Of a stretch of 64,000 nucleotides of DNA, positions 45,748-62,728 are shown piece by piece; the first letter of the stretch is position 1, and each line of letters opens with the position of its first letter. The notes under the pieces are model-generated. The model did not search any database. It was not told the origin of the DNA and was given only the letters and a program-made list of their open reading frames with translations. Source of the DNA: Oscillospiraceae bacterium (lineage in GTDB: Bacteria > Bacillota > Clostridia > Oscillospirales > Ruminococcaceae); assembly GCA_009777725.1 (NCBI GenBank), contig WRLG01000011.1, forward strand, positions 6,807 through 70,806. The letters run 5' to 3'. A program made the position numbers and the translations under genes.

Positions 45748-46023
45748 ATGTATAAAGAAACGCGGGGCGATTATCGGCGCGTGTTATCAAAATTTATAAA
45801 AAAAAAGCTATACCTGAACACCCACATGAATCTGACCGACAATACATTTCTTGAAATAGAAAATGTAAAGCGGATAACGGATTATAACGATGTCTGCATA
45901 CAGCTTCAGACCTCTACGCTCAGCTTAAGAATCTGGGGCAGTAATTTACAAATTTCCGATTATAATACAGATGGAATTGTTGTCAGAGGAGCATTTTCAT
46001 CGATTGAGTTTTTTCCCATTTGA
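45748..46023 (+). CDS. yqfC: sporulation protein YqfC (YabP family)
   Basis: YabP-like beta pattern FLEIENVKRITDYNDVCIQLQT...LRIWGSNLQISDYN...IVVRGAFSSIEF. Immediately precedes yqfD. Confidence 0.7.
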   Translation: MYKETRGDYRRVLSKFIKKKLYLNTHMNLTDNTFLEIENVKRITDYNDVCIQLQTSTLSLRIWGSNLQISDYNTDGIVVRGAFSSIEFFPI

Positions 46024-46052
46024 AACTGTAAATTATCTAAAGGAGAGCAAAT

Positions 46053-47225
46053 ATGTTTGATAATTTAAGGGGCGTTATTACGTTCAGCATTTTTACGGCT
46101 GAGCCCGATAAGCTTATTAACGAACTTAAAGAGAGCTCATTAGCGGTTCGTAATATGACTGTTAACAAAAGCGAGGTCAGAGGGCAGATTTATCGTAACG
46201 GCTTTGAGGAACTAAAGGAAATAGCGCGGTTAAACGGCGGGCAGGCGGTTGCCTTGAATAAAAAGGGGCTGATTTTTACCGTAAAAAGATATGAGCGGCG
46301 ATACGGCATCGCGGCAGGAGCGGCTCTTTCCTTGGGGCTGATTTTTTTCCTTTCCAATATCGTTTTGACTATTGAGGTTTACGGAAACGACACCCTTTCC
46401 GAAAATCAGATTATATCTCTTCTGTCCGATTACAATTTAAAGATAGGGAGCTTTATCCCGGGCTTAAATATGCGTGAAATAGAGCGCGAGGTTTTGGTTG
46501 CGACGGATGAGCTTGCATGGGTCGGAATCCGCAATACGGGGTGTAGGGTTAGCGTTGAGGTCAGCGAAATCGGTGATTACCCCGAGATGTCGCAGTCACA
46601 TTCCCCGCGCAATATAATCTCCGCAAGGGACGCGCAAATCGTAGATGTTCGCAACCTGCACGCGGGAATGTTGACCCATATGCTGGGGGACGGCGTAAAA
46701 AAAGGCGAGGTTATTATAAGCGGGGTTATTGAAACCACCTACGGCGAATCATATTTTGTACATGCTACGGGCGATGTAATCGGCAGGTATTCCGAAAAAA
46801 CAGTGTTCACTCAAAGCTATGAGGATGAAAGCATAGCGTATCTTGAAAAAGCTTACAGGAAATCCTTTTATTTTTTCGGCGCGAAAATCCCGCTTTACGT
46901 GTTCCGCGTTCAAGGTGATTACGAATATGATGAAAGCCTCTCTCTTTTCAGTGTTTTTAACTTGAAAATACCTGCGGGTATTGTTTATTCGGAATATAAG
47001 CTCTACGAAATAGAGTCAAAAAAATACACCCCCGATGAGGCAAGGGAGCTTTTAGCCGAAAAAGTACGTACTTACGAAAAAAATTTTCTCGATGGGGAGG
47101 ATTTGTTAATCGTTGATAAAGAAATACATATCTCTGAAAATCAAAGCGATGTCACCGCTGTTGTAAAATATACGCTGGAGGGGAATATCAGCGTTCCGCA
47201 GGGGATAATGGCGAAGAGGTATTGA
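46053..47225 (+). CDS. yqfD: sporulation protein YqfD
   Basis: 390 aa, with a central TM helix followed by TIEVYGN...; gene order is yqfC-yqfD. Confidence 0.8.
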   Translation: MFDNLRGVITFSIFTAEPDKLINELKESSLAVRNMTVNKSEVRGQIYRNGFEELKEIARLNGGQAVALNKKGLIFTVKRYERRYGIAAGAALSLGLIFFLSNIVLTIEVYGNDTLSENQIISLLSDYNLKIGSFIPGLNMREIEREVLVATDELAWVGIRNTGCRVSVEVSEIGDYPEMSQSHSPRNIISARDAQIVDVRNLHAGMLTHMLGDGVKKGEVIISGVIETTYGESYFVHATGDVIGRYSEKTVFTQSYEDESIAYLEKAYRKSFYFFGAKIPLYVFRVQGDYEYDESLSLFSVFNLKIPAGIVYSEYKLYEIESKKYTPDEARELLAEKVRTYEKNFLDGEDLLIVDKEIHISENQSDVTAVVKYTLEGNISVPQGIMAKRY

Positions 47226-47356: not shown

Positions 47357-48244
47357 ATGGTAACTGAAACATTCCTCATATCAGTAAAAAACGACATCGG
47401 ATTTAGGCTTTTCTTCGCTGACGAACGGAACATTGAGTTTTTACAAGGGTTGTTAAAATCAATTCTGAAACTGGACGAGGGCGAATATGAGGTCATCGAA
47501 ATCCTCGACCCGCACTTGCTCCGCGAATTTCACGGGGATAAACTAGGCATTGTCGATGTAAAGGTAAAAACTAAAACAGGGAAAATTATCCATATAGAAA
47601 TCCAACTCAGAGTCCGCCCCGGCATGGAGGAGCGTATTATTTATTATGATGCTAAGCTAATCACAGAGCAAATCGGAAGCAGTGATAAATATAAAGACCT
47701 AAAACGAGTAATCAGCATTATAATCACCGAAGAAACCCTAATAAAAGCAAGCCCGCTTTACCATCATCGTTTCACCTTTTTCGACCCGAACGCAAACATC
47801 GAGCTATCCGACCTAATCGAAATCCACACTCTGGAACTGAACAAACTGCCGGATAATTTTGACGGCACGGAATTATGCGACTGGGCGAAATTTATCGCCG
47901 CAGGGAGCGAGGAGGAATTGGAAATGGTAGCAAACAGGAATACGCAAATTAGTAAGGCTGTAGTCAAGCTCCGCGAACTGTCGGCAGACGAAAAAGCGCG
48001 TGATATGTATGAACGCCAAGAAAAAGCAAGGCGGGACCATGAGTGGGCTATGGATTATGCTCGGGAAGTGGGTATTGAGGAGGGTAGGCAGGAAGGTCGG
48101 CAGGAGGGTATCAGGGAGGGTATCAAAGAGGGTATCAAGGAGGGTACGCAAAAACGCGAGCAGGAGCTTATTGAAAGCATGAAATTATCCGGCATGTCGG
48201 AAGCCGAAATTGATAGAATCCTTAACTTTAAACGCAAACATTGA
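47357..48244 (+). CDS. Rpn-family / PD-(D/E)XK putative transposase-nuclease
   Basis: GIVDVKVKTKTGKIIHIEIQL core and a C-terminal EGRQEGRQEGIREGIKEGIKEG repeat. Confidence 0.7.
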   Translation: MVTETFLISVKNDIGFRLFFADERNIEFLQGLLKSILKLDEGEYEVIEILDPHLLREFHGDKLGIVDVKVKTKTGKIIHIEIQLRVRPGMEERIIYYDAKLITEQIGSSDKYKDLKRVISIIITEETLIKASPLYHHRFTFFDPNANIELSDLIEIHTLELNKLPDNFDGTELCDWAKFIAAGSEEELEMVANRNTQISKAVVKLRELSADEKARDMYERQEKARRDHEWAMDYAREVGIEEGRQEGRQEGIREGIKEGIKEGTQKREQELIESMKLSGMSEAEIDRILNFKRKH

Positions 48245-48408: not shown

Positions 48409-48864
48409 CTATTCCTCCATCTGTTTCCCCAAAAACTGCGCCGCCGCCTGAATCAGATTTTGCTGAACTTCATTTGCGACTGCATCGTTATTGTTAGCCA
48501 GAAACGCAACCGCGCCCGTAACATCTCCCGACGAAAGAATCGGCGAACAGGCTATAGCGGGTCGGTCAATGCCCTCTACGGGGTAAACCTTAGCATCTGA
48601 GGAAGATGTTTTGAGGTAGTTTTTGCGGTTATCGAGATATTCCTCCAGTGCTTGTGAAATACGCCTTTCGCTGAACTCCTTCTTCTGCACCCCCGCAACG
48701 GCGACTACATGGTCGCGGTCAAAGACAACCGTGGGGCAGTTGGCAAGCTTAGTCATAACCTCGGCAACCTGCGCCGCCGAGCCTGCAAGCTCATTGATTG
48801 CGGAGTATTTTTTAAAAATTACCTCGCCATCGTTGCTTGTGTATATTTCTAAGGGGTCGCCCTC
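48409..48864 (-). pseudogene. spoVT: spoVT, 3' fragment (codons from ...EGDPLEIY to the natural stop), separated from its 5' part by the insertion
   Basis: EGDPLEIYTSNDGEVIFKKYSAINEL...VAVAG...GDVTGAVAFL...AAQFLGKQMEE is collinear with the SpoVT C-terminal 5/6. The upstream 32 codons of track ORF 48409..48960 are element/CRISPR sequence. Confidence 0.85.
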
Positions 48865-48937
48865 ATTGATAACATTGGAAGATAGATTTTGTTTAGGAAT
48901 ATCAGGGTTTGGGGAGAGGATATGTTGTACATAAATT

Positions 48938-49978
48938 ATTTCAACCCACACGCCCCACATAGGGGGCGACGTTGAGGCGTTGGAATATCCGAGTTTGTTA
49001 TGTTATTTCAATCCACGCCCCCCGCATAGGGGGCGACTTTGCGGAGAGAATGAGCCTTATTCATAATTTGGATTTCAATCCACGCCCCCCGCATAGGGGG
49101 CGACTGTTAATTTCGGGCACACTTTCATCTCACAGGCGATTTCAATCCACGCCCCCCGCATAGGGGGCGACATAAGTGATAACCGTTTCGCCTCTATCCA
49201 AGAAATTTCAATCCACGCCCCCCGCATAGGGGGCGACCTATGTTGGTTGACGAATTGAGAGCGTGGGGCATTTCAATCCACGCCCCCCGCATAGGGGGCG
49301 ACTTTTACTGGTGTATAACTGTTGCTCTGTGTTGTTTATTTCAATCCACGCCCCCCGCATAGGGGGCGACCCAAGACAAAATTGCGTGTGCGGGTTTACG
49401 AGGGAGCATTTCAATCCACGCCCCCCGCATAGGGGGCGACATTAAAGAGTTTGCGAGAGGGGGAAGCTTCGTTTTATTTCAATCCACGCCCCCCGCATAG
49501 GGGGCGACAAAAGCGGGTGATGATATGCAAATTGTAATAACTATTTCAATCCACGCCCCCCGCATAGGGGGCGACCTCTGCAAAAAGGATTAAAGGAACA
49601 CGGACTTGTTATTTCAATCCACGCCCCCCGCATAGGGGGCGACACAAGCCAAAACGCAAGCTGAAAAGGCACTACTCATTTCAATCCACGCCCCCCGCAT
49701 AGGGGGCGACGAGAGGGGCGACATATTATGGCAAAGTATGGTATATTTCAATCCACGCCCCCCGCATAGGGGGCGACGGGCTCGATATAGGTACGGGGTA
49801 GGTTTTGAACTTATTTCAATCCACGCCCCCCGCATAGGGGGCGACATAAAGCTGTTGAAAATCAACGGCTTTTATTTTATTTCAATCCACGCCCCCCGCA
49901 TAGGGGGCGACATTAGCCCGTCAAATACGGCAACGGTTGTGTTTCATTTCAATCCACGCCCCCCGCATAGGGGGCGAC
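48938..49978 (-). CRISPR. CRISPR array, 16 repeats (33 nt) and 15 spacers (32-37 nt), type I-C repeat
   Basis: The plus-strand repeat is ATTTCAATCCACGCCCCCCGCATAGGGGGCGAC, which is GTCGCCCCCTATGCGGGGGGCGTGGATTGAAAT in the transcribed sense. Repeat starts: 48938 (degenerate), 49005, 49072, 49139, 49205, 49270, 49338, 49408, 49476, 49543, 49611, 49678, 49745, 49813, 49879, 49946. Confidence 0.97.
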
Positions 49979-50169
49979 TACAAAATGTTACAAAAATTTA
50001 TTAAAATTACAGTATAAATTTGTCAAAAGTTATAAATTCACAGCAATTCTTTAATAAATAATCGGATTATTTTGCAAAAATAATTTGTTTTCGGCAAATT
50101 ATTTGGTGCGAATACTCAGGTGTTTTTATGTTTGCTAATGATTCGCACTCGTTATGCAATAAATTCTGT
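49979..50169 (-). promoter_or_regulatory. AT-rich CRISPR leader between cas2 and the first repeat
   Basis: 191-nt AT-rich non-coding stretch next to the non-degenerate end of the array. Contains hairpin GTGCGAAT...ATTCGCAC (about 50106-50148) after cas2. Confidence 0.55.
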
Positions 50170-50481
50170 TTATATTATTAGCGGCTCTGTTACATCGAAT
50201 GAGGCTTTTGCTCCGTAGTGTTCAACATTGTTTTTGTAATTATTTCCAAGTGAGTAAAATCTAAGGCTATCCTCATTCTTATCCATAATTTTGAGCAATG
50301 TTGCCTTAACCTTAACAAGCAATGCGGCATCGAGGTTACATTCAAATACGGAGTTTTGAACTCGTTGACCGTAATTTACGCAGGTTTTGGCTATTTGCCG
50401 CAGACGTTTACGCCCTGCGGCAGTTTCCGTGCTAACATCGTATGTGATTAACACAAGCAAACAAATGCACCTCATTTCCAT
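50170..50481 (-). CDS. cas2: CRISPR-associated endoribonuclease Cas2
   Basis: LVLITYDVS...RKRLRQIAKTCVNYGQRVQNSVFEC. Confidence 0.9.
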   Translation of the reverse strand: MEMRCICLLVLITYDVSTETAAGRKRLRQIAKTCVNYGQRVQNSVFECNLDAALLVKVKATLLKIMDKNEDSLRFYSLGNNYKNNVEHYGAKASFDVTEPLII

Positions 50482-51503
50482 AAAAACGGCGGATATTCGT
50501 CAAGGTCGCCCCGCAAAAATCTTGCAAGCAGTAAGGCTTGAACATAAGTCGCCAATCCCCATTCTATCTTTTCCTGCAAAAACGGGTGCGTTATTTGTTC
50601 CTGTTTCCGCTTTTGCCAAGCATTTAAAAATATTCGCCTTGCTTCATCTTTTATAAGGACAGAGCCGTTTTCCTTTGTTTGAAAGCCTTTTGAGTCTATT
50701 TGCCGCTTGTTAATCAGCGACAATACAAATCTGTCGGCAATAACCGCTCGAAATTCCTCCATTAAATCGAGAGCTAAAGATTTCCTCCCGGGTCTGTCAC
50801 GGTGGAGAAACCCCACAAATGGGTCAAGCCCTACCGAGCGAACCGCCGCCGCAACATCGTTGGCTAAAAGGGAGTACGCAAAAGACAGCAATGAATTCAC
50901 ATTGTCAAGCGGCGGGCGGCGGCTTCGTGTTTTAAAGAAGAAATCCTCTTTAGACTGCAAAATCAACTCATCAAATACGGAGAAATATCTTGTCGCCGCT
51001 TCACCCTCAATGCCTCGTATCGTTTCCAAGTTGCTTGCTTTCCGTAATGGTTTTACGGCATTTGCAATGCCGAGTGCCGCTGATTTAATTCGCTCGGAAT
51101 CAACTCTCATCTCATGGTCACGTAACGCTCGTTCGAGAATCCAACGGCTGTTATGAAGCTTTGCGGTTATTATATTTTTTGCGATTGCCGTGCTTTGGGT
51201 TAAATCATCTGCCATTCTGTACTGCGTTCTGCGAAGAACGACATTCCCCTTTTCTATCCCCGATACATCCGCCAAAAACCGCCCGTTTACTGTAAAAAAT
51301 GACAACGCAATATTTCGGTCGGCACACGCTCCCATCAAAGCGGGAGAAGCCCCCGTGTAACCGAAAGTGATAATTCCCTCTAAGTTATGAAGCGGAACAC
51401 GGAGCAAGGTTTCTTTATCTCGTAATACAACGACGTTTTCGCCGTCCAACGAAAGGTAAGCATCGGGCGTTGTTACATAAAGAGTATTCAGAAGTTTTCT
51501 CAG
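50472..51503 (-). CDS. cas1: CRISPR-associated endonuclease Cas1 (type I-C)
   Basis: The track ORF starts at 51449, but the conserved N-terminus (R)KLLNTLYVTTPDAYLSLDGENVVV continues upstream in frame. The only plausible initiator is CTG at 51503-51501, with GAGGAGGG upstream. Confidence 0.85.
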   Translation of the reverse strand: MRKLLNTLYVTTPDAYLSLDGENVVVLRDKETLLRVPLHNLEGIITFGYTGASPALMGACADRNIALSFFTVNGRFLADVSGIEKGNVVLRRTQYRMADDLTQSTAIAKNIITAKLHNSRWILERALRDHEMRVDSERIKSAALGIANAVKPLRKASNLETIRGIEGEAATRYFSVFDELILQSKEDFFFKTRSRRPPLDNVNSLLSFAYSLLANDVAAAVRSVGLDPFVGFLHRDRPGRKSLALDLMEEFRAVIADRFVLSLINKRQIDSKGFQTKENGSVLIKDEARRIFLNAWQKRKQEQITHPFLQEKIEWGLATYVQALLLARFLRGDLDEYPPFLWK

Positions 51504-52171
51504 AAAACACCCTCCTCTCGTAATGCGTGAGCAATATAATTTGCAACATTTTTAGTGTCCGTTACCTTAGGCAGGCATAACTCATACAGCGAACATTTCA
51601 AACAGTATTTTGATGATTTTACTTTCGGAGTATATCGGCGATTATAGTAATCGTGCATTTCGCAAACCATTTTTCGGGCTTTTTCACGCATTTCATCGGT
51701 TATATCAACATATTCCCGCCGCTTTGTTTCTCCGTAGTAAATACAACTTTTCTCAATTTTGCCGCAGTTCAGCATTTCTTCAAGACACATAGCTTGAAGA
51801 GTAAGCTGAAACCTGTCGCAATCATTGATTTTCGATTTACCTCGCTTATACTCTACTATCAGCGGAAACCACTTACCCGAACGTCCATGCAAACTAACTC
51901 CGCAAACATCATCTTGATGAAACTCAATAATATCGCATTGTCCCGAAACACCGAGTTCACTTGAATGAATCGGCATTTCTCGTGTTATAATCACATCTCC
52001 CCGCTTTTCGGCAAAAAACGGATCATGTGCTTTCTCGTGGATTACCCGCCCTTCGGCTGTCAGGACATTTTCCGCCCACAATTGCTCAATATGTATTAAC
52101 GCCCATTGTCGGCGGCAAAATGCAAAGTGTTGTATTCCCGATAGCTGCAAAAAATCATCTTCTGTATACAT
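51500..52171 (-). CDS. cas4: CRISPR-associated exonuclease Cas4
   Basis: RecB-like motifs, an N-terminal Cys (FCRRQWAL) and a C-terminal CLKCSLYELC cluster. Confidence 0.9.
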   Translation of the reverse strand: MYTEDDFLQLSGIQHFAFCRRQWALIHIEQLWAENVLTAEGRVIHEKAHDPFFAEKRGDVIITREMPIHSSELGVSGQCDIIEFHQDDVCGVSLHGRSGKWFPLIVEYKRGKSKINDCDRFQLTLQAMCLEEMLNCGKIEKSCIYYGETKRREYVDITDEMREKARKMVCEMHDYYNRRYTPKVKSSKYCLKCSLYELCLPKVTDTKNVANYIAHALREEGVF

Positions 52172-52173
52172 AC

Positions 52174-53004
52174 TTATTCACCATCGATTTCTTCCGTCTT
52201 AATTCCAATATCGTCAAGCGTATAAGTTCCGTCTGCATTGACATGAAGACTGCGGTGAACCTTTGCAGACGAGAGAGTTTTTTCTGTATGTGTCCACCAA
52301 ATTAGTTTTATAACTTCCATGCTCCCTGCAGGTCGAGCGGCAGATTCGTCATTCTCGAACATTTTAAGCATTGCCTCTTTCAGCGTTTTGGCATCATCAT
52401 CGGAGAACCCGGTCTTTTCGGAAAGCTGTTTGTTTATGCTACCGTATATAACGTAAATGCCTTTATCAACCCTGTGCTTATCTCCCATTGTATCCGACCC
52501 TTTAATTTCACCTCCTATATCGCCGGATGTACTTTTGGTTATTTTCAGATGAGTTATATCAATAGGTTCTTTTGAAAATGCACTCTGTATAGAAACCGGT
52601 CCGCGAACCGGAATAGATACGGATACTTGGTTTGGGCTTTTCCCGTCTTTCCAAGCAAGAACTGCACCAAAAGCTCGAACATCAAACCATTTTTCACAAG
52701 CAATTTTTGCTTTTTCGCTTGTCTTATCATCTTTGTTTGGTTTCCCCATTTCAGCTTCATAGCGTGTTTTTATGTCAGGATATTCATCTTTTTTATAATC
52801 GTCAGACTGAATGAGAATACTCTCTCCCATATCAAGAAGCCTGTTTCTGATTTTGCGTTTTAGGCATACGTCCGTCATTTCTCCATAACCATCGTAGTCT
52901 GTTCGGGGTCTGTTGCCGTTTAGCGGGTCGCCGTTGGGGTTAGCATTTCTTACCCCGATTATAATTGCGAAGTCAATTTTCTTAGTCAGCATCTTCTTGT
53001 TCAT
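52174..53004 (-). CDS. cas7: Cas7 (Csd2), type I-C
   Basis: IIGVRNANPNGDPLNGNRPR signature. ATG at 53004 is preceded by AAGGAGG. Confidence 0.85.
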   Translation of the reverse strand: MNKKMLTKKIDFAIIIGVRNANPNGDPLNGNRPRTDYDGYGEMTDVCLKRKIRNRLLDMGESILIQSDDYKKDEYPDIKTRYEAEMGKPNKDDKTSEKAKIACEKWFDVRAFGAVLAWKDGKSPNQVSVSIPVRGPVSIQSAFSKEPIDITHLKITKSTSGDIGGEIKGSDTMGDKHRVDKGIYVIYGSINKQLSEKTGFSDDDAKTLKEAMLKMFENDESAARPAGSMEVIKLIWWTHTEKTLSSAKVHRSLHVNADGTYTLDDIGIKTEEIDGE

Positions 53005-54898
53005 TTCCTTGTTCCTCCTTGATTCTTTTTTTGTTTTCCTCATATTCTTTATCCTTATCCGCATAATACTTGCGTTGTAAAGAATAACCAAATAGATATT
53101 TTACGGTTAATGGTTTGTCATACTCTTTGTCAGAAATATTGGGGTCAAACAGTAACTCTGTGATACTGTCTATTTCTTGCTGATACCATTCACGACCGCC
53201 GCTTTTCAAACTTACGAGAGCATAGTTTATCTTCTCTCGAATAATTCCCCAGGTGCGATAAGGATTATTTTTAAAAGCGGACATATACCTTATTGCATTT
53301 GTGGGACGGTCGTCTTTTTTCTTTTGCAAGTGCTTCCTTTCAATAGTATCAGCAACCGCAAGTAACCTCCCGAAAAGATAATCCTTATCCTTATTATTTC
53401 TGTCTAATCCCAATGCAAAAACCTCCTCTTTATAATAATATTTACGCCCCATAGCACAAACAACGCCGATATGATTCTCCCAATCGTCTTTATCACTCTC
53501 CCATTTTTTAATAAATGAAAACGGATTTGAAACCCTGTTTACTGCGGCGTTTAGCCAAGACTTGTCAAATTTCTCACTGTTTAAAATAAAACTCAAAATT
53601 CGCTCTCTCGCCTGTTTTTTGATTTTGTAATAGCTCTTTGCTTCACCCGGTGGTTTTTCACCGTATACCGCCGCAATAATCTTATCTGTACTCGGCGCGG
53701 AAATATGATAAATTGGGTTCCCGTTTTTATCATATATAAATTTTCCTTTCTTGCCCCTACTTCTAAAATTCCAACAACAAGTTTCATGCCAGTTTATAAT
53801 GCGTTCGATGTATTCGTTTTCGTCTAAATCACAGTAAAAAGTAATGGCAAGAGGGGCATCCCCCTCACTATCTGTTGCTAGTACAACAATTTTTCTGTCG
53901 GTTTGCGATTTTTTTACAGAACCGCATCCATTGAGCAACTCTCGAAGTTTATGGGCATAATCCCTATTTAATACCCCCTTTGTCTCAATAAGCTTGTCGC
54001 TATCTGTTTGCGGCTCCTCATTTCCAAAAAATTCACACGAATCTTTTTGAAAACTAATCGCTTCCTCGCCATTATCAATTGCCCACGCTACTATTGCTTG
54101 TGAACCACATTTAGATAAGTTTTGTGCCGATATTAAATACTTCAACATAGACATTGCGGCATGACTTGATTCCTTGCCAATTATGCGAGATTCAGTGGGA
54201 TTATTCGCAATTGGAAAAAATCGCCCCGAGTAGACAAAATTAGGGTCTTCTTTGTCAGACGGAAAGCAAATGAGCTTGCTATTTCCTGATATTTTTTGAC
54301 TATACTTAGAGATAGTTTTCACTTCTCCGGTTGCATAGCAAAGCCCCTTATTCTTATCCTCGCCCTCGTTTTCTTTACAGTATTTTATCCAAGCATCAAC
54401 AATGGTTTCATCTTTCCATAAATCCGATTCCAAGCCCAACCACACCGAAAACATAACAAAGGTTTTGGGTGATAAATTTTTAAACTTATATCCTTCCAAA
54501 TCGTCCAAAATAGTCTTCTTTGAAAGATACTGATATACAATTTTTACTTTATCATGAAAGTTACACCATTTTCTTAATTGTTCCATATAGGCATCGTAGT
54601 ATTTGTCATAATAAGCCAGATATTTCATTTGTTCGTGTAAGGGATATGGTGCAGAAGTTGAAGATGTGCGTGCTTCGGCTTCCGGAGTATACGGAATGAT
54701 AACTGAACCGGAAAATGGCTCTGCGTGTTTTAAATTGCCGCTTTTATCAAGCGTTATGCGTATACCATTACTATCTTTTGATTTTCCTATATTTTTAAAC
54801 AAAAAATATGGTGGCGGCAGTATGTTTTCATTATCATTAATCCCCCAAATATTTTCACAATTATAGTAAGTCTCAGCCAAATTACCAAACCAACTCAA
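52982..54898 (-). CDS. cas8c: Cas8c (Csd1), type I-C large subunit
   Basis: 638 aa, positioned between cas5 and cas7, with 4-nt overlap with cas5. The call rests on size and position; the sequence itself is only weakly recognisable. Confidence 0.8.
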
Positions 54899-55608
54899 TC
54901 AAAATCACCATCCCTTTCAGCTTGCTCTACAGTTTTGAAATTATCGCCCTCAACGAATCTCTTAAAATCATATTTGTCACCGTATTCTCTGACAGTACGG
55001 TACATAGGGTCAACAAATTCAATAATGCCGTTGTTCATTGACTGCTTGCAAAGTCTGACACCAAGTTCTTTTTTGCCTGTTTCATCAGGATAATCAAAGC
55101 TGTGAAACATAACTCCGAAATCAATAACGCCGTAATCATTGTAAGGGCTTGAATCTTCACCAAATATGCAGGGTTCGACATAGCCTTGACACTCTCTTGT
55201 GCCGAGGAAAATATCTCGCCGCCCGCCCTGTTCTACACAGCGTTTGGCAATATTATGATGTTTATGCTCGTTGCGGTCATTTAATAAATCCGGGCGTTGC
55301 TCGTTCCACTCGAAATGTGCCGTTACTTGATACTCAACATCTTTGAGATAAGTGTAATAAGCAAGGTCGTTTCCTCCGTTCATTTTAATAGGGCGAACGC
55401 CCTTGCTTTCTGTCTGAATTTTTTTCATAACCCGAATTTTATCAACATACCAAATAAAAGTCGGCTTCCAATATATGCCTTCGCAAATCCCCTTTAACGC
55501 TTGATATGTAGGAGTTTGGTAGCTGAATTTTTCGCCGCCCGGTCGGGTAATCGGGTCGGAAAAAAGTGCGTATCTGCCGTAAACCTTAAATTCTATTGAG
55601 TTTCGCAT
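54895..55608 (-). CDS. cas5: Cas5c (Cas5d), type I-C pre-crRNA-processing subunit
   Basis: [37 protein letters not shown]-terminus typical of Cas5d. Confidence 0.85.
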
Positions 55609-55620
55609 ATAATTCCCCTT

Positions 55621-57936
55621 TCACGCATTTAACAATTCGTGTTTTCCGTTAATATCTATCCCGAAATCACCACTATAAAAGCCCTTTGATAAAACCGTCA
55701 GTCCGTTATAGTTTATATTGTCAATTGCACCGTGTTTTTTAAATTTTTTAAGTTGTTCTTCATATAATGAAACGCTGTATTTACCAAGCTTTTTCAGTAA
55801 CTGTCGCTTTTCTTTTAAGCAATCGGTTGAGTTATATTGGTTTAGTAACGCTTCGCTGTCACCATAAGGAACAATAACGTTAATCCGCCCTTTTTCAATC
55901 ACATAAAACTCATCAGCGGCTGAACGCATTGCAAACGGCAACGCAATTTTTGTTTTATTCCCCCTGTTTTTATATGCACCAACGCCTTGTTTATTGCACG
56001 ACAGCAAATCGTAAATTGAGCCGTTATTTACGGGGTAATCCATTTTATTTTTTATATCCGTCTGACCGTAATAATATTCATAATATTGCTCTATCGTTAC
56101 GTTCTCTTCATCAAATAATCGCCTTGTAATATTTGCCCCCGCCTTTATATCGGGCAATCTGCTCAAATTTTCACCCTTGATATTTATCACATAAACGCTT
56201 TTAGCATCGTCATATTCACCATGACGGTTGCAACGCCCAGCCGCTTGAAAAATGCTGTCAAGCCCTGCAATGTCACGGATAACACATTCAAACGAAATAT
56301 CAACTCCGGCTTCTATAAGCTGCGTAGATACGCAAATTACAGACTCTTTGTTTTTCAATCGTTGCCTTAACTTTGCGATTACATCATCTCGATGAGCAGA
56401 ACACATATTTGTACTTAAATGCAAAACGGAGTTGATTTCTTTCAATTCCTCATAAACAGCTTTTGCGGCGGCTTTGGTGTTCACTATTACAAGAGTTGAA
56501 TTGTTATGCTTGTCCAAGATAAATTCCGATAATTCGGGGTATGTATAGCCTGCTCCGCTAAGCGAATTAATAATGTTATAACGCTTTGGCGGTTCAATAT
56601 AAGTGGTAAGCGATGGACTGTCCGAAAATAATATTTTCCTGAAAACTCTTTCAAATGGGGGTTGAGTGGCAGTGCAAAGTAAAATAGTGCTTTTGCAGAT
56701 TTTATTAATAAAATTCATAGCCGAATTAAAAATATGAGTGCATTTGAGCGGGATGCTTTGTGCTTCATCAAATATAATCACGCTTTTAGCCATGTTATGA
56801 AGCTTTCTCAAATCGGAGCCTTTTGCCGAAAATATGCTTTCCAAAAGTTGAACTTGCGTAGTAAGAATAATGGGTGCATCCCAGCGACCCATTTGCAATT
56901 TATAATGCTCCTCCTTGTCATCGTCTGGAAAGAAATCGGAATGATGTTCAAAGACCATGTCTTCATGGCATCCGAGCGTTCTGCGAATTTCAATTGCCGT
57001 TTGGCTTAAAATAGAAAGATACGGGATAACGTAAATGACCCTGTCTAAACCATGATGTTTAGCGTGTTCAAGTGCAAAACGCAAGCTCGATAAAGTCTTG
57101 CCGCCGCCCGTCGGCACTTCGAGTTTGTAAATGCCAACGCCTCGCAACCCGGCAATTTTGCAGTCTTCCGATACCTTTCGCCGCAGTTTACTCATAGCGG
57201 AATTTGAATCTGTTTCTGAAAACTCTGCAAGCCTTTTTTCAAGAGCATTTATTAATTCGCCCCAATTCGGCGTAGCAGGATGAGAATAGGGAACGCCGAT
57301 TTCAAATAAGTAAGCCCCTAATCTGTCAGCATCAACAAGGCATGAAAAAGCAAGCTTAGTTAGCATGGAAACAAAGAAAAACCTATCTAAGCTTAAATTT
57401 TCAGCTGTTTGTGTAATATTCAACAACTCATTTTTCAGAGCATTTATATCAACAGGCTCACCATTAAAATCAACATTCTCAGTTCTTGCTATTTTATCAT
57501 TAAGCGACGTTTCACCATCGGGAGAGATATTATCGTATAATCTGCCGTGATGAGAAGCGATAATATTAGCGAGTATTTCAGCGAACGGCGGGATTAAGAG
57601 AGTTTTGTCATATGCGTATTTCGCACCATATTCACTATGCGGCAAACGCTCCTTTTGCGGATTACTACTATGTAAATTTCTATGCAAATATTCTTGCCAT
57701 TCTTCAGACGACTTGCCTAAATCGTGCCAGAACCCTGCCAATCGCATAGTTTCGCCGATACCGCATTTATTACCGAATGAACATGCAATTTCAGATGTTT
57801 CCATCAAGTGATTTTTTAGTGACTGATTTCTACGTACCGATTTATCTAAATCGTACAAACTACGTGCCAAATAATCGTCCAACAATGTGTATTTTTGTTT
57901 TTGTTCAATATTTTTTGGCATTATGTTCATCCCCAA
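55621..57936 (-). CDS. cas3: Cas3 helicase-nuclease (HD + DEAD/DEAH helicase)
   Basis: HD motif FWHDLGK, Walker A PTGGGKT, DEAQ box IIFDEAQ. Confidence 0.9.
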   Translation of the reverse strand: MGMNIMPKNIEQKQKYTLLDDYLARSLYDLDKSVRRNQSLKNHLMETSEIACSFGNKCGIGETMRLAGFWHDLGKSSEEWQEYLHRNLHSSNPQKERLPHSEYGAKYAYDKTLLIPPFAEILANIIASHHGRLYDNISPDGETSLNDKIARTENVDFNGEPVDINALKNELLNITQTAENLSLDRFFFVSMLTKLAFSCLVDADRLGAYLFEIGVPYSHPATPNWGELINALEKRLAEFSETDSNSAMSKLRRKVSEDCKIAGLRGVGIYKLEVPTGGGKTLSSLRFALEHAKHHGLDRVIYVIPYLSILSQTAIEIRRTLGCHEDMVFEHHSDFFPDDDKEEHYKLQMGRWDAPIILTTQVQLLESIFSAKGSDLRKLHNMAKSVIIFDEAQSIPLKCTHIFNSAMNFINKICKSTILLCTATQPPFERVFRKILFSDSPSLTTYIEPPKRYNIINSLSGAGYTYPELSEFILDKHNNSTLVIVNTKAAAKAVYEELKEINSVLHLSTNMCSAHRDDVIAKLRQRLKNKESVICVSTQLIEAGVDISFECVIRDIAGLDSIFQAAGRCNRHGEYDDAKSVYVINIKGENLSRLPDIKAGANITRRLFDEENVTIEQYYEYYYGQTDIKNKMDYPVNNGSIYDLLSCNKQGVGAYKNRGNKTKIALPFAMRSAADEFYVIEKGRINVIVPYGDSEALLNQYNSTDCLKEKRQLLKKLGKYSVSLYEEQLKKFKKHGAIDNINYNGLTVLSKGFYSGDFGIDINGKHELLNA

Positions 57937-58111
57937 CTTTAAGTTCTTATAGATAATTATACTATATAAAGTTATATAATGTCAATACTTTTGCCGAAAA
58001 TTTACAGGACTTAGAAATTGCAGAAGAAGAAGTCGCACAGTCGGTGACAATAAGAATAAATCTCACAAAAAATGGTAAAACTAAACTTCAGAGGGGGAAT
58101 TGCTTATAAAA

Positions 58112-58321
58112 ATGAATATCAAAGATTCTGACCATATAGCAGAAATATGGCTGACAAACGAAGAACAGCAAAATGAAGAGTTACGACAATCGCTGGAACT
58201 GCTTTATGAGAAGTATAAAGCCCAAAAATATAAAATCTGCATATTCTGCTCCGGCAAAAGCGACTTGACAGAAAACACCGCAAGGCTTTTGTTTTGCAAT
58301 AAGGCTTTAAACACAGTATAA
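58112..58321 (+). CDS. small hypothetical protein (69 aa) on the element
   Basis: MNIKDSDHIAEIWLTNEEQQNEELRQSLELLYEKYKAQKYKICIFCSG... From memory it resembles small proteins seen on Firmicute mobile elements. Function unknown. Confidence 0.4.
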   Translation: MNIKDSDHIAEIWLTNEEQQNEELRQSLELLYEKYKAQKYKICIFCSGKSDLTENTARLLFCNKALNTV

Positions 58322-59539
58322 TCCTATAGTCAAAATTATCCTGTCTTTTTCAATTTTTTCCGTAAAAACAGGTTCTGCCCAGCCTTGCTCCTCGCAAACA
58401 CGCTGAATAAGCGGTATCCCGCTTCCCAATCGTTCCCCAATATCGAGGAGACTAAACATTTTCATAATAACGGAATTGCGAGGAGATGACACACCGCCGC
58501 TCAAGGCCTCATCAATACTGACACGGAAATTACCCGGGTTTTCAAATATAATTCCATCAAGATTATTTCGTATAACAAGACCACGCTCACCATAAAAATC
58601 AGCGTTAATAAGGCAATTCGCCAACGCTTCCCGCAACGCCTTGTGAACAGGCGTATCATCAATACGAGTCAAACCGTCCGCCATTTTAAAAGGCGTTTTT
58701 ATTTTTGGGTTTTGAATGAGCTTATTATATGCCTTAAAAAAGAAGTCGTTAAGATTACCGCTCCACTCGCCCGAGGAGGAGGTAATTCTATCGGTAAAGC
58801 GAATATCAGGGTCAAAATGTTCCTGATAATCAAGAAAGTAATACGGATATTCACGCAATATCTCATTCTCAAAGCCAAACATCAGCAAACCGGCGGCAGT
58901 AGGATACCTCTTACCGTCTTCGCCGATGCCTACTGCCCCAAGCTTTTGCAAAAATTCAACGTCCTCCAACACTTCCCAAACATGACCGGGGCGGGTCACT
59001 TTCATACGGTTGCGATAACGCCGCAAGCTGTCATAATCAAACACGTCAAGCAACATTTTGTCAAGTACGAGCATATCCTGCGTTTTAACTCCGTTATCCC
59101 GAATCATAGCTGATACCATTTCCTTAGAGCAACGATAATCGCCCTCGCCGTTTCTGCGATAAGTTCCTGTAAACGGATTGTCATTCAGATAAATGGGTTT
59201 AAAGTTTCTATCCGCCCGGGGAATGTCTATGACTATAACGCTTTTGCCGGCAACACGTTCAACCCTAACCCGCTTGTCTGTCAGAATGTTGATATTGACT
59301 TTTTTAGTGTTATTGACGGTATTCCAAAAGTCGGCAATCAGCCTATCGGGGTTTTCAAGCCCGGCAATTTTCAGCGATTTATCGGAAAGTTCTTCAACGC
59401 CGAGCAGAATAACGCCGCCGTTTGTATTGGCGAACGAAGAATAGGTTTCCCATATGCTGTTCGGAAGTCCTCCCTCCGCTTTCTTTGCTTCAAGTCGGTT
59501 GCCCTCGCAATATTTATCAAGTTCATTTAATTTCAACAT
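58307..59539 (-). CDS. AlbA_2/Schlafen-type divergent AAA domain plus HATPase_c_4-like protein (putative regulator; COG2865-like)
   Basis: N-terminal EGNRLEAKKAEGGLPNSIWETYSSFANTNGGVILLGV... and C-terminal ALREALANCLINADF...GSGIPLI. The usual C-terminal HTH appears to be absent. Confidence 0.65.
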   Translation of the reverse strand: MLKLNELDKYCEGNRLEAKKAEGGLPNSIWETYSSFANTNGGVILLGVEELSDKSLKIAGLENPDRLIADFWNTVNNTKKVNINILTDKRVRVERVAGKSVIVIDIPRADRNFKPIYLNDNPFTGTYRRNGEGDYRCSKEMVSAMIRDNGVKTQDMLVLDKMLLDVFDYDSLRRYRNRMKVTRPGHVWEVLEDVEFLQKLGAVGIGEDGKRYPTAAGLLMFGFENEILREYPYYFLDYQEHFDPDIRFTDRITSSSGEWSGNLNDFFFKAYNKLIQNPKIKTPFKMADGLTRIDDTPVHKALREALANCLINADFYGERGLVIRNNLDGIIFENPGNFRVSIDEALSGGVSSPRNSVIMKMFSLLDIGERLGSGIPLIQRVCEEQGWAEPVFTEKIEKDRIILTIGLYCV

Positions 59540-59651: not shown

Positions 59652-59680
59652 TTGACAAAACATCAAAGATATGTTACAAT
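59652..59680 (+). promoter_or_regulatory. consensus sigma-A promoter of the recombinase gene
   Basis: TTGACA (59652-59657), 17-nt spacer, TACAAT (59675-59680); AAGGAG RBS 8 nt before the ATG at 59714. Confidence 0.55.
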
Positions 59681-59713
59681 ATTACCAACATATACATAAA
59701 AGGAGAAAACAAT

Positions 59714-61645
59714 ATGGAAACAGAACAACCCACCCGCATTGCCGCCTACTGCCGCATATCCGTAGACGAGGAAATAGATAGGGAAAACACAAGTATTGAG
59801 AACCAAAAATCTATTATTACCGACTTTGTCGCCCACAAATTTCCAAATTCCCAACTTGATTTTTGTGAGGACAGGGACAGGAGCGGTTATACATTTGAGC
59901 AAAGAGAAGGCTATATGAAAATCCGCCCCCTGCTGATGAGAGGCGATTATGACATACTTATAGTCAAGGATTTCTCAAGGTTTTCACGGCGTAACAGCAA
60001 AGGGCTTGTCGAGCTTGAGGACTTGCGAGATGCCGGCGTTCGCATTATAGCAATCGGTGATAATATTGACTACCCGACTTATGACGACTGGACGGCGATT
60101 CAGTTTCGTTTTCTTATTAATGAAATGCCTGTTACTGATACGAGCAAAAAAGTCAAGTCCGTTATCAAACGCCGCCAGAGCGAGGGCAAATGGATTTGTG
60201 CCGTGCCGTATGGGTATGTGATTACCAACAGTAAAACTATGGCTTTTCAAATTGATGAGCCTGCTGCCGAAGTTGTCCGCGAGATATTTAAGCTGTATAA
60301 CGACGGCTGGGGCTACAAGAAAATTGCGAATCACCTGACAGATAAGCATATCCCAACGCCGAGAATGGCAGAGAAGATGCGTAAAGAAGCGGCAGGTGAG
60401 GACTGTAATATCAAAACAAAAGAAATATGGAGTATAATTACAATATCAACAATTTTGCAGAATGATTTTTATATCGGAACTTTGCGGCAGGGCAAATACC
60501 GCCGCAAAAAAATCAACGGCGGCGATGTTAAAGAGGATTGCGAAAACCATATCGTCTTTGAAAATAATCACGAGCCGATTATTGATTACCGCACTTTTGC
60601 TATAACCAAAGAGCAACTTAAAAAACGAACAAGCACCAACTATCGGGGTGTGAAAAAATTTGAGAATGTTTACTCCGGTTATCTGTTCTGCGGGGATTGC
60701 GGCTCGCCGTTGTTCTCAATGAGTCGCCGTGATTTAGCCCCCGCCTACACCTGCGGTACGTATCATAACAGAGGAACAAAAGGCTGCACTTCTCATCATA
60801 CACGGGTTGATACCCTTGATAAACTACTGAAATCCTATGTGAAAACAGTCAAGGAAAACTCCGCCGAGATGCTTAACAAGCTTAACGAAGCACTCAAAGA
60901 CGAAACAGCCCATACAAAAGAAACCACCGACACAATAAAAATCATAGAGGAGCAAATTGATAATGCAAAGACCGAAATGAAAATGCTTGCCAAGCAAAAG
61001 CTGAAAGACATTATGAGAAACCCGAACAAAGAGGAAATGCTTGAAGAAACCTATGACGAAATGCTTGATGAACTGACCAACAGAATAGACGGCTTGCAAA
61101 ATCAACTGACTCTGACCGCAAACCGCCGCAACACAGTAATCCGAGTAAACCGAACAGCCAAAACCGCACTTGATATTTTCGATACTATACTGAACAAAGA
61201 AAAACTCGACAAATGCGATATTGAGCTAATCATAGATAAAATCATCATCTATGAAGACCACTTGGAAATCCACCTCAAATCCGACATAGACCATCTGCTG
61301 AAATGCGGTACGCTTGCTCATAGCGAAGAAACTGCCCCGCTTTTAAGCATTGATGAGATTGATAAGGAGGAAATCGTAAATTTTGAGCAAGGCACTATAA
61401 ATATCTCACCCTATGTAAACCGCATTGTCCAGTCTGCCCCTAATCGGAAAGACAAGGTTTATAGTGTCAATGTTATCAGCAATGGGTCACCCTCCCTAAT
61501 CCTCATAGTGCGCCTTATTTCCTTAGGGATAACAACCCTTCCTAAATCGTCAATTCTCCTGACAATTCCGGTAGCTTTCATGCTTATATTCCTCCATATC
61601 AGAGCTAAGCGGTATTTAAAACGAGGATTTAGGTTTGAGGCTTGA
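59714..61645 (+). CDS. large serine recombinase
   Basis: Resolvase catalytic domain (AAYCRISVDEE...RDRSGYT...VKDFSRFSRR), recombinase domain (PYGY), zinc ribbon (CGDCGSP...CGTYH...CTSH) and a long coiled coil. The ORF reads through the right junction at 61484-61494. Confidence 0.9.
   Translation: METEQPTRIAAYCRISVDEEIDRENTSIENQKSIITDFVAHKFPNSQLDFCEDRDRSGYTFEQREGYMKIRPLLMRGDYDILIVKDFSRFSRRNSKGLVELEDLRDAGVRIIAIGDNIDYPTYDDWTAIQFRFLINEMPVTDTSKKVKSVIKRRQSEGKWICAVPYGYVITNSKTMAFQIDEPAAEVVREIFKLYNDGWGYKKIANHLTDKHIPTPRMAEKMRKEAAGEDCNIKTKEIWSIITISTILQNDFYIGTLRQGKYRRKKINGGDVKEDCENHIVFENNHEPIIDYRTFAITKEQLKKRTSTNYRGVKKFENVYSGYLFCGDCGSPLFSMSRRDLAPAYTCGTYHNRGTKGCTSHHTRVDTLDKLLKSYVKTVKENSAEMLNKLNEALKDETAHTKETTDTIKIIEEQIDNAKTEMKMLAKQKLKDIMRNPNKEEMLEETYDEMLDELTNRIDGLQNQLTLTANRRNTVIRVNRTAKTALDIFDTILNKEKLDKCDIELIIDKIIIYEDHLEIHLKSDIDHLLKCGTLAHSEETAPLLSIDEIDKEEIVNFEQGTINISPYVNRIVQSAPNRKDKVYSVNVISNGSPSLILIVRLISLGITTLPKSSILLTIPVAFMLIFLHIRAKRYLKRGFRFEA
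61483..61581 (-). pseudogene. spoVT: spoVT, 5' fragment (Met1 to ...REGDP) with its RBS
   Basis: ATG at 61581 with GGAGG upstream. MKATGIVRRIDDLGRVVIPKEIRRTMRIREGDP is then followed by 7 element-encoded codons (LLITLTL) and a stop at 61459. Confidence 0.85.
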
Positions 61646-61715
61646 GGAATGGAAGAATTAACGTAAGGATACAATTAACCTCTGAATCCCCTCAAGCCTT
61701 AAACCTAAATCCTCG
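61622..61715. repeat. long inverted repeat (26-bp arms, 42-nt loop)
   Basis: CGAGGATTTAGGTTTGAGGCTTGAGG (61622-61647) and CCTCAAGCCTTAAACCTAAATCCTCG (61690-61715), with 25/26 positions complementary. Confidence 0.7.
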
Positions 61716-61963
61716 CGTAACTGCCTTGCTCCATAATTTTATTAAAAATGTAATAATAGTGTTTGTACGGCAGGCAGGAATATACATTCATAATTATTTT
61801 TATTATTTGCTGACAATATTGATAAATTATGACATAATTTTCGCTTGACTTTGTCGGTTTTTCGTGGTATAATAGGGGTTAGCCGCTTCGGTAGGGGTTT
61901 CGTCTTTAGGCGGGTTAAATCGCCTGTCGGCGAAATTGAGCATATAGTATGGAGAGATTTATT

Positions 61964-62728
61964 ATGACTGTTTGGGAAATGGTAAAAAAGGCTGTTGAGG
62001 ATGTTACTTGTCAATCCGAAAATCCTGTTGTTGCCGAAAAGCAAATTAAAGAATATATACTGAATCATTATCCCGGAACTAACCCGGCGACAATAATCAA
62101 TCAAATAATGTTTTGTTCTGTCAATCGACAATCTCGTGTAAACGACCCTAAAAACCAAAGGCAAATAATTTGTAACAGAGAATTTGACTTTTTGTACAGA
62201 CCGAATATTAATACTCCTGAAGTTGTCATGTACAACCCTAATGAACACGGACAATGGGAAATTGCTCTTTCAAATGATGCAAAATTCATTGTTCGCAGAA
62301 CAGATGATGAAACAATCATTACCGACCATGGCATAGCTGAAAATAATGATTTAGCTTTTGCACTTGAAGCTCATTTAAGAGATTTTATCTCTAAGAATTT
62401 ATCAACAATAGGGAATTTGACGTTGTTTGAAAACGGAGTTGAATATTCTACTGATGTTGGCAATATTGACATTCTAACTAAAAACGAAAATGATGAATTT
62501 GTTGTCATAGAATTGAAGTTGCATAGGGGAGAAGATGCCGCTTTGGGACAAGTTCAACGATATATGGGGTGGATTAAGGAAAATCTTGCGGATAATGGCA
62601 ACGTATATGGGATGATAATTGGTAAGTCTATAACCAAAAAATTAAAGTATGCTGTATCTGTAGCACAAAACATTACATTATTTGAATATTCTATGACCTT
62701 TTCTGTTGCTGAAGCAATGTTAAGTTAA
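61964..62728 (+). CDS. PD-(D/E)XK nuclease-like protein (NucS/DUF91-type C-domain with an Mrr_N-like N-domain), tentative
   Basis: C-terminal GNIDILTKNENDEFVVIELKLHRGEDAALGQVQRYMGW (D...ExK). ATG at 61964 with GGAGAG 7 nt upstream. Confidence 0.55.
   Translation: MTVWEMVKKAVEDVTCQSENPVVAEKQIKEYILNHYPGTNPATIINQIMFCSVNRQSRVNDPKNQRQIICNREFDFLYRPNINTPEVVMYNPNEHGQWEIALSNDAKFIVRRTDDETIITDHGIAENNDLAFALEAHLRDFISKNLSTIGNLTLFENGVEYSTDVGNIDILTKNENDEFVVIELKLHRGEDAALGQVQRYMGWIKENLADNGNVYGMIIGKSITKKLKYAVSVAQNITLFEYSMTFSVAEAMLS

Follow-up and report, generated by a model that had tools for sequence, protein, structure and literature searches.

A 12,630-bp integrative element with a type I-C CRISPR-Cas system interrupts a spoVT-like gene in an Oscillospiraceae bacterium

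Organization of the locus

The DNA analysed was a stretch of 64,000 nucleotides (nt), referred to below as the window, from contig WRLG01000011.1 of an Oscillospiraceae bacterium (GenBank assembly GCA_009777725.1). Within it a gene resembling the sporulation gene spoVT is split at codon 32/33 by an integrative element of 12,630 bp, which was inserted by its large serine recombinase (LSR) through a crossover at the dinucleotide GA. The two parts of the gene, the recombinase gene and the junctions are as follows, in window coordinates.

61459-61581, minus strand: spoVT 5' fragment with a product of 40 amino acids (aa); codons 1-33 (61581-61483), 7 element-encoded codons and a stop
48409-48856, minus strand: spoVT 3' part; rest of the AbrB domain and SpoVT_C, stop codon intact
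59714-61645, plus strand: LSR gene, 643 aa as integrated; Resolvase, Recombinase and Zn_ribbon_recom domains
61466-61502, no strand: attR junction; recombinase-proximal P arm GTCAATGTTATCAGCAATGGG, crossover TC (61487-61488), then spoVT
48851-48878, no strand: attL junction; spoVT, crossover TC (48857-48858), then P' arm GCCCTCATTGATAACATTG

The interrupted gene

The window was searched by tblastn with the Bacillus subtilis SpoVT sequence. Residues 1-33 matched positions 61581-61483 on the minus strand with 97% identity, residues 18-178 matched 48900-48412 on the same strand, and no further credible spoVT copy was found in the window. The open reading frame (ORF) of the 5' fragment consists of 40 codons, MKATGIVRRIDDLGRVVIPKEIRRTMRIREGDP followed by LLITLTL and a stop, and scored 69.5 bits against TIGR02851 (model positions 1-35). 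The 3' part begins …GDPLEIYTSNDGEV… and ends QMEE. When the halves were rejoined, an uninterrupted protein of 180 aa was obtained, sharing 93% identity with an intact orthologue from a metagenome-assembled genome of Oscillospiraceae (locus L009). An earlier reading of the window made from its letters alone (the sequence-only reading) had proposed a split spoVT with a 40-aa AbrB-half peptide; the tblastn halves, the junctions and the in-frame rejoining confirm the split, and the peptide ORF lies exactly at 61581-61459.

The rejoined protein matched TIGR02851 (spore_V_T) over model positions 1-180 of 180 with 202.9 bits, which is below the curated cut-off of 235.9; the model may fit bacilli and clostridia best, and no other family gave a better match. 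Its architecture is an AbrB N-terminal domain (TIGR01439, 1.3e-13) joined to a GAF-like SpoVT_C domain (PF15714, 1.2e-36). Judged by these profile matches, the interrupted gene is spoVT-like, falling short of the TIGR02851 equivalog threshold. The ratio of nonsynonymous to synonymous substitution rates (dN/dS) was 0.036 between the split gene and an intact orthologue and 0.044 between two intact genes, values for which dS is saturated and the divergence may predate the insertion. As a test for decay the low ratios were set aside as weak evidence that excludes only long decay. Both spoVT halves, the LSR gene and the att arms are intact in the window.

Junctions and recombinase

Both junctions have GAGGG[T/C]GACCC in common. 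At the crossover the dinucleotide reads GA in the direction of spoVT and TC on the plus strand; it occurs at 48857-48858 and 61487-61488, a spacing of 12,630 bp. The reconstructed attP consists of inverted arms, CAATGTTATCA…TGATAACATTG, with GA at the centre. GA was assigned as the crossover because in two related loci inserted at other sites (L149 and L120) the homology to spoVT-integrated copies ends right after …GGCGA, and because a third locus (L007) has an intact, unrecombined attP.

The recombinase was assigned to the large serine recombinases by its domains (PF00239, 2.4e-15; PF07508, 3.2e-21; PF13408, 2.6e-10) and carries an N-terminal YCRIS motif with the serine present. It gave no DUF4368 hit, is at most 33% identical to DUF4368/TnpX-like proteins, and matched the NCBIfam model recomb_XisF weakly (85 bits against a family cut-off of 375). 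No close relative was found among characterised phages or plasmids. The best relatives in the phage collection were MT839487.1 (59%) and MT836658.1 (53%), both short unannotated contigs from human faecal viromes; excised circles or packaged copies of such elements may reach virus-like particle fractions.

The LSR ORF has no stop ahead of attR and reads on into spoVT antisense, ending within a hairpin in the spoVT leader. The attP site lies inside the 3' end of the gene (window 61480-61645), and therefore the extreme C-terminus changes with the integration state; the excised form is predicted to have 616 aa and a different tail. In attP-form LSRs from elsewhere (P0003, P0016, P0041, P0069, P0097) a conserved tail, …L[IM]TL…F…ML.L.ERLYI[K], is encoded well past the att site. 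For SprA, a title cited in PMC12286644 proposes that the extreme C-terminus contributes to directionality.

Cargo of the element

Read from right to left, the element carries the LSR gene, a Schlafen gene, an ORF of 69 aa, a type I-C cas operon and an array of clustered regularly interspaced short palindromic repeats (CRISPR).

58307-59539, minus strand: Schlafen AlbA_2/HATPase_c_4 cargo gene, 410 aa, between the 69-aa gene and the LSR gene
58112-58321, plus strand: 69-aa partner gene of the LSR, candidate directionality factor
50170-57936, minus strand: type I-C cas operon (cas3, cas5d, cas8c/csd1, cas7, cas4, cas1, cas2)
48938-49981, minus strand: CRISPR array of 16 repeats (15 identical and 1 degenerate terminal) and 15 spacers

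All seven type I-C cas genes are present, in the order given above, together with the repeat array, and make up a predicted complete type I-C system. The degenerate terminal repeat stands 80 bp from attL, the left end of the element. The CRISPR-Cas system lies wholly within the recombinase-bounded element and is therefore mobile cargo. Its spacers had no match in the phage collection. A relaxase gene is present in some relatives and not in the element of the window.

A family of elements at the spoVT site

Among the 120 closest LSR homologues (61-79% identity), 101 were in-frame fusions of the recombinase to the Pfam domain SpoVT_C. They read …SVNVISxGDPLEIYT…QMEE, which is the in-frame junction at the identical codon with the element in the sense orientation. 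SpoVT_C directly followed the LSR on its 3' side in 72 of 83 loci from metagenomes and viral contigs. The element thus belongs to a large family, and the recombinases of that family are specialised for exactly this spoVT site.

The reverse orientation found in the window is that of a minority, shared by at least nine other members (at least four clades). In such members the LSR tail is an antisense translation of spoVT, …GSPS[LR]I[LR]IVR… (P0036, P0050, P0062, P0084, P0070/72/74, P0115). For serine integrases the central dinucleotide determines the orientation of integration. On the recombinase-sense strand it is GA in the majority and TC in the window, and the element of the window is reversed because the central dinucleotide of its attP is flipped relative to the recombinase gene. 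In the sense-oriented majority a fusion ORF is therefore created; it was considered as a selected product and rejected, the reverse-oriented and attP forms having other tails.

Both junctions were seen in an 8.4-kb member in loci L004 and L005, which are Anaerotruncus massiliensis-like. The order in L004 is spoVT N-fragment, HsdM, GmrSD, NikA-like protein, relaxase, small ORF, RhuM and LSR::SpoVT_C. The N-fragment has an element-encoded tail of 24 aa and is still detected as an AbrB/MazE domain, and a terminator-like hairpin stands directly 3' of it. The fusion protein was found, identical, in 157 collection blocks and is named 'stage V sporulation T C-terminal domain-containing protein' at NCBI; the database name 'stage V sporulation protein T' for fusion ORFs is misleading. 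Isolates that carry members of the family include Anaerotruncus massiliensis (WP_276872494.1) and, with the fusion ORF, strains of Ruminococcus flavefaciens. Expression of the element genes from the host spoVT promoter was also considered, and was rejected on account of the hairpin in L004 and of the promoter in the window, which is antisense to the LSR gene.

Cargo in 21 dereplicated relatives was mostly type I restriction-modification, with an AAA_25/DnaB_C gene in many. The 10 kb upstream of the LSR in L003-L006, L099, L143, L153 and others held type I restriction-modification, GmrSD and RhuM genes, and in some loci also a relaxase gene together with one for a NikA-like protein. As a whole the family resembles a mobilisable carrier of defence islands. 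In L149 (at about 4216) and L120 (at about 3973) the element is inserted outside spoVT with homology ending after GA, so secondary targets are usable by the family. LSR proteins of attP form exist in public assemblies, for example in the P0041 cluster (217 member sequences). P0136/L175, a candidate for an independent strain with the same insertion, was dropped as coming from the same Joint Genome Institute sample.

A collection of genomes was scanned with the rejoined SpoVT; it held species representatives, the source genome not among them, and a split spoVT was seen in 1 of the 80 closest representatives (best matches listed, identity at least about 58%). Nearly all relatives have the same first 40 residues in SpoVT. 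A search of a literature library returned no paper linking spoVT to a serine recombinase or an intervening element, and the spoVT-targeting family is apparently previously undescribed.

Much of the sequence-only reading of the insertion stands, among it the site and the split; what it overlooked is the CRISPR-Cas cargo, the family to which the element belongs, and the opposite orientation of the majority.

Promoters of spoVT and of the recombinase gene

Promoter-like features ahead of the two genes were placed as follows.

61757-61785, minus strand: sigma-G-like promoter motif of spoVT, GTATA-N17-AACACTA
61622-61715, minus strand: nearly perfect leader hairpin of about 94 nt between the spoVT promoter and the ribosome-binding site
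59652-59680, plus strand: sigma-A-type promoter of the LSR gene, TTGACA-17-TACAAT with TG extension

Upstream regions of intact spoVT orthologues were dereplicated (n=70) and scanned for promoter patterns. The sigma-G-type pattern G[ACT]AT[AG]-N17-18-[CA]A[ACT]N[ACT]TA was found in 44, against a mean of 2.3 and a maximum of 6 in shuffled regions; the sigma-E and sigma-A patterns were found in none and the sigma-K pattern in one. With a weight matrix built from the orthologue promoters, the spoVT motif was the top site of the window on both strands (20.2; next site 12.0). It lies 175 nt upstream of the ATG because the leader holds a hairpin of about 100 nt. The sequence-only reading had suggested the roughly 60 nt upstream of 61581 as the place to look for a sigma-F/G-type promoter; the motif is at 61785-61757 instead.

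In Clostridium difficile spoVT depends on sigma-F/G and is independent of sigma-E/K (PMC3738446). By analogy with these promoters, the view that spoVT is a forespore gene here, which the sequence-only reading had taken from other species, is supported, and by the same analogy spoVT differs from the mother-cell targets of intervening elements.

The leader hairpin has a folding energy of -64.8 kcal/mol (z -7.2); UUUUAAAU comes next on the spoVT strand, and the LSR stop codon lies inside it on the opposite strand. It is unique to this strain and absent from relatives. No Rfam family scored above threshold, the sub-threshold matches being to microRNA precursors only and read as chance. With no Rfam family and no other copies, neither a riboswitch nor a repeated miniature inverted-repeat transposable element is supported. 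The hairpin could attenuate spoVT transcription or terminate LSR transcription.

The sigma-A pattern ahead of the LSR gene was matched in 23 of 31 dereplicated relatives. Its conserved extended -10 region (…TGATACAATATTATCAG…) resembles the recombinase-proximal att arm (GTCAATGTTATCAGCAA), as seen at 59668-59700 of the window and upstream of the LSR gene in L094-L101, L172 and L173. This likeness in sequence hints that the LSR may bind and repress its own promoter.

The partner gene

The 69-aa gene was found together with that of the LSR in 78 of 83 related loci, and its family comprises 399 representatives among 1.84 billion proteins. The consensus is …IVEIWLTNxE…YKVAVFxSGxxDL…LLxHN, and the AlphaFold model (pLDDT 92) has the order β-β-α-α-β-α. 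A word-indexed protein search with the partner returned only itself. Ahead of the gene in the window is the following motif.

58054-58083, plus strand: forespore-type promoter-like motif of the partner gene, GAATA-N18-AAAACTA, ending 28 nt before the ATG

In 22 upstream regions of the partner gene, which are partly homologous, the sigma-G pattern was matched in 7 against 0.37 expected and its strict form, CAT[AT][ACT]TA, in 5 against 0.02 expected. The sigma-A, sigma-E and sigma-K patterns had no match in the same regions. With the spoVT-promoter matrix 14 of 26 partner upstream regions scored above the 95th percentile of shuffles, compared with 1 of 28 LSR upstream regions used as controls. 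The best site almost always ended 19-35 nt ahead of the start codon.

Proposed mechanism and alternatives

The element shares the machinery of the sporulation gene-intervening elements. It is inserted within the coding sequence of a sporulation gene and leaves two ORFs on one strand; it has its own recombinase beside one junction, and att sites that allow in-frame rejoining. As to a directionality factor under a sporulation promoter, a conserved partner gene was seen, with motif enrichment at the level of the family and a weak motif in the window. What it would not share, by promoter analogy, is the mother-cell target.

A mechanism can be proposed from these parts. The LSR would be made constitutively from its conserved sigma-A promoter and would by itself favour integration. 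The 69-aa partner would be its directionality factor, switched on in the forespore through the sigma-F/G-like promoter. Precise excision would then rebuild spoVT in the inherited chromosome of a non-dividing cell, and the circle would persist in the spore and re-integrate after germination, when the partner protein is gone. The swap of the LSR C-terminus between the integrated and the excised state could help to set the direction. Such a cycle is mechanistically possible because the forespore does not divide, so that there is no segregation loss, and because the integrase alone favours integration. The full sequence of sigma-A-driven recombinase, partner-triggered excision in the forespore and later re-integration is the likeliest of the mechanisms considered and is put forward tentatively; taken whole we lean slightly against it. 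Its forespore-specific reversible form, with a sigma-F/G-driven factor, a non-replicating circle in the dormant spore and re-insertion at germination, is rather unlikely. The idea that the element persists as a circle in the spore and re-integrates, one of four options offered by the sequence-only reading, is indirectly supported by the promoter logic and the attP forms in metagenomes; the mechanism itself would still be a matter of interpretation.

Several observations weigh against forespore excision driven by the partner. The partner has no match in Pfam, in NCBIfam or to a known directionality factor, and a Foldseek search with its model found nothing below E 0.2 in PDB or BFVD. Its motif in the window is weak (7.3, p 0.011, against 20.2 for spoVT), with comparable sites elsewhere, for example at spoIVB; about half of the family members have no convincing motif, and the upstream regions counted, being partly homologous, are not independent. 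The element of the window has no replication gene, and a circle that failed to re-integrate would therefore be lost. For this strain only the integrated state is on record in the protein database, which contains neither an intact SpoVT of more than 89% identity nor an LSR in the 616-aa excised form. Some serine recombinases that use GA, namely TnpX and TndX, excise without a partner. Near-identical elements occur in hosts with quite different SpoVT sequences, and horizontal spread could therefore sustain the family despite costly insertions.

The main rival reading is plain disruption, which is plausible, if on balance something we would not expect to hold. The element would be selfish, the conserved codons of the AbrB domain would be a landing site only, and sporulation would stay unfinished unless excision occurred sporadically, possibly independently of the partner. 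The cost would be bearable in gut niches, and horizontal spread and the defence cargo, which can repay the host for carrying it, would make up for it. The near-invariant first 40 residues of SpoVT make an ideal conserved attB, and the single split gene among the 80 closest species representatives listed reads as a minority polymorphism; some members carry a relaxase with a NikA-like protein, similar elements are found in different host species, secondary-site insertions exist, and only the integrated state is on record for this strain. Set against this, both spoVT halves and the nearby spoIVB, yqfC and yqfD are intact, forespore-type motifs are enriched ahead of the partner gene and not ahead of the LSR gene, no sigma-A-type pattern precedes the partner gene, and the occurrence of the identical integrated fusion protein in 157 collection blocks suggests stable inheritance. 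A recent deleterious accident, as the sequence-only reading also allowed, is disfavoured as a one-off event by the existence in many genomes of a recombinase family dedicated to this codon. It is improbable that the interrupted copy is dispensable through a second functional spoVT or an equivalent regulator in the genome. AbrB-family paralogues are common in Firmicutes, and the source genome was not among the species representatives scanned; still, the window holds no second spoVT, two loci were seen in none of the best 80 related assemblies listed (at least about 58% identity), and the split gene is under the same strong purifying signal as intact orthologues.

Developmentally timed excision might instead take place earlier than the forespore stage or in another cell, such as the predivisional cell, in which case an intact spoVT and the circle would pass to both compartments. 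We consider this slightly less probable again: the intact recombination machinery and the attP forms are compatible with it and nothing bears on it directly, while the partner gene has no sigma-A, sigma-E or sigma-K pattern ahead of it and the sole enriched motif is of the forespore type. The split products might also function without excision, either as the N-fragment with a separately translated C-domain or, in sense-oriented relatives, as the LSR::SpoVT_C fusion. About 100 homologues have an in-frame fusion ORF, and the N-fragment of L004 with its 24-aa tail is still recognised as AbrB/MazE. Yet the break falls within the AbrB fold, at residue 33 of about 50, and at no domain boundary; the C-part in the window has neither a ribosome-binding site nor a conserved start, its would-be leader being the end of the CRISPR array; and the unrelated tails of the reverse-oriented and attP forms mark the fusion as a side effect of site geometry. 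For these reasons it is very improbable that the split products function, and sporulation with a split spoVT, another of the earlier options, is unlikely with a break inside the AbrB DNA-binding fold.

Comparison with known systems

As the sequence-only reading had stated, the intervening elements described so far interrupt genes of the mother cell, and their excision is confined to that cell (PMC4191935, PMC5595907); in SPbeta and gin a constitutive integrase is combined with a sporulation-timed directionality factor (PMC4191935, PMC5595907). The gin element in gerE of Bacillus cereus is, like the element of the window, a non-phage element in the gene of a small sporulation regulator, and it pairs the LSR GirC with a very small motif-less partner, GirX (PMC5595907), as the window pairs its LSR with a small motif-less protein. 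GirC alone integrates, and excision needs GirX (PMC5595907). In contrast to the window, where the target has a forespore-type promoter and the cargo is CRISPR-Cas, gerE is a mother-cell gene on a chromosome that is discarded. The partner in the window has 69 aa and GirX has 42, their sequences are unrelated, and any directionality activity in the window is a prediction.

SPbeta in spsM (SprA/SprB) and skin in sigK (SpoIVCA) of B. subtilis, and the skin element of C. difficile, likewise split a sporulation gene and have an LSR at one end (PMC4191935, PMC5499854, PMC5025042). Their logic, a constitutive integrase with a directionality factor under a sporulation promoter, is the one proposed for the window. 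They are prophages or prophage remnants that occupy mother-cell genes, and their factor has sigma-E/K promoters, whereas the motifs in the window are of sigma-G/F type. They are kept in the spore genome, as their excision never takes place in the forespore; the gene split in the window would be needed in the cell that is inherited.

In Anabaena heterocysts the fdxN element with XisF is a case of developmental excision from a gene by an LSR, in a cell that is terminally differentiated, as the mother cell is. Tn4451 and Tn5397 of clostridia (TnpX, TndX) have an LSR, a GA crossover, a circular intermediate and occasional secondary targets. The family resembles them in its LSR, its GA crossover, its secondary targets and the relaxase of some relatives, and differs in that the LSR of the window has no DUF4368, the element of the window has no relaxase, and the family strongly prefers a single site in one gene. 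A functional phage, phi10403S of Listeria, practises active lysogeny in comK, and its trigger acts within the mammalian phagosome. There the host gene is restored in a cell that survives and the phage then re-integrates, the same behaviour as is suggested here for the forespore, where the trigger would be the sporulation programme rather than the phagosome.

All studied interruptions of sporulation genes are described as excising only in the discarded mother-cell genome, and a family on a presumed forespore gene would depart from this rule. If reversible excision in the germ line is real, this would be the first case in which an intervening element splits a forespore gene, as well as a new developmental DNA switch, and islands of CRISPR-Cas and restriction-modification would be inherited through spores. 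In the alternative case many gut and rumen Oscillospiraceae would carry a mobile conditional block to spore maturation, which bears on the rarity with which spores are seen in Ruminococcus-like bacteria that have full sets of sporulation genes. As a vehicle for CRISPR-Cas and restriction systems the family had not been recognised before, and it offers serine integrases with a defined target of 40-50 bp, in both orientations, together with a candidate new class of directionality factor.

Host genes and neighbouring features

Intact homologues of spoIVB, yqfC and yqfD lie in the host part of the window, at 36754-38013 and 45748-47225. The spoIVB gene is preceded by GTATA-N17-AATAATA, the motif ending 64 nt ahead of the ATG. 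By its sporulation genes the host looks like a genuine spore-former. The genes that flank spoVT are both outside the element.

61949-62728: NucS_C/DUF7669 PD-(D/E)XK nuclease gene, on the promoter side of spoVT
47357-48244: Rpn-family PDDEXK_2 'transposase' gene, on the 3' side of spoVT

A SpoVT homologue of 312 aa on an ENA contig (P0121) has a tandem duplication of its C-terminal domain, with …AEIK|LEIYTATDGEV… repeated; this may have arisen in assembly or may be a genuine duplication at that same LEIY boundary.

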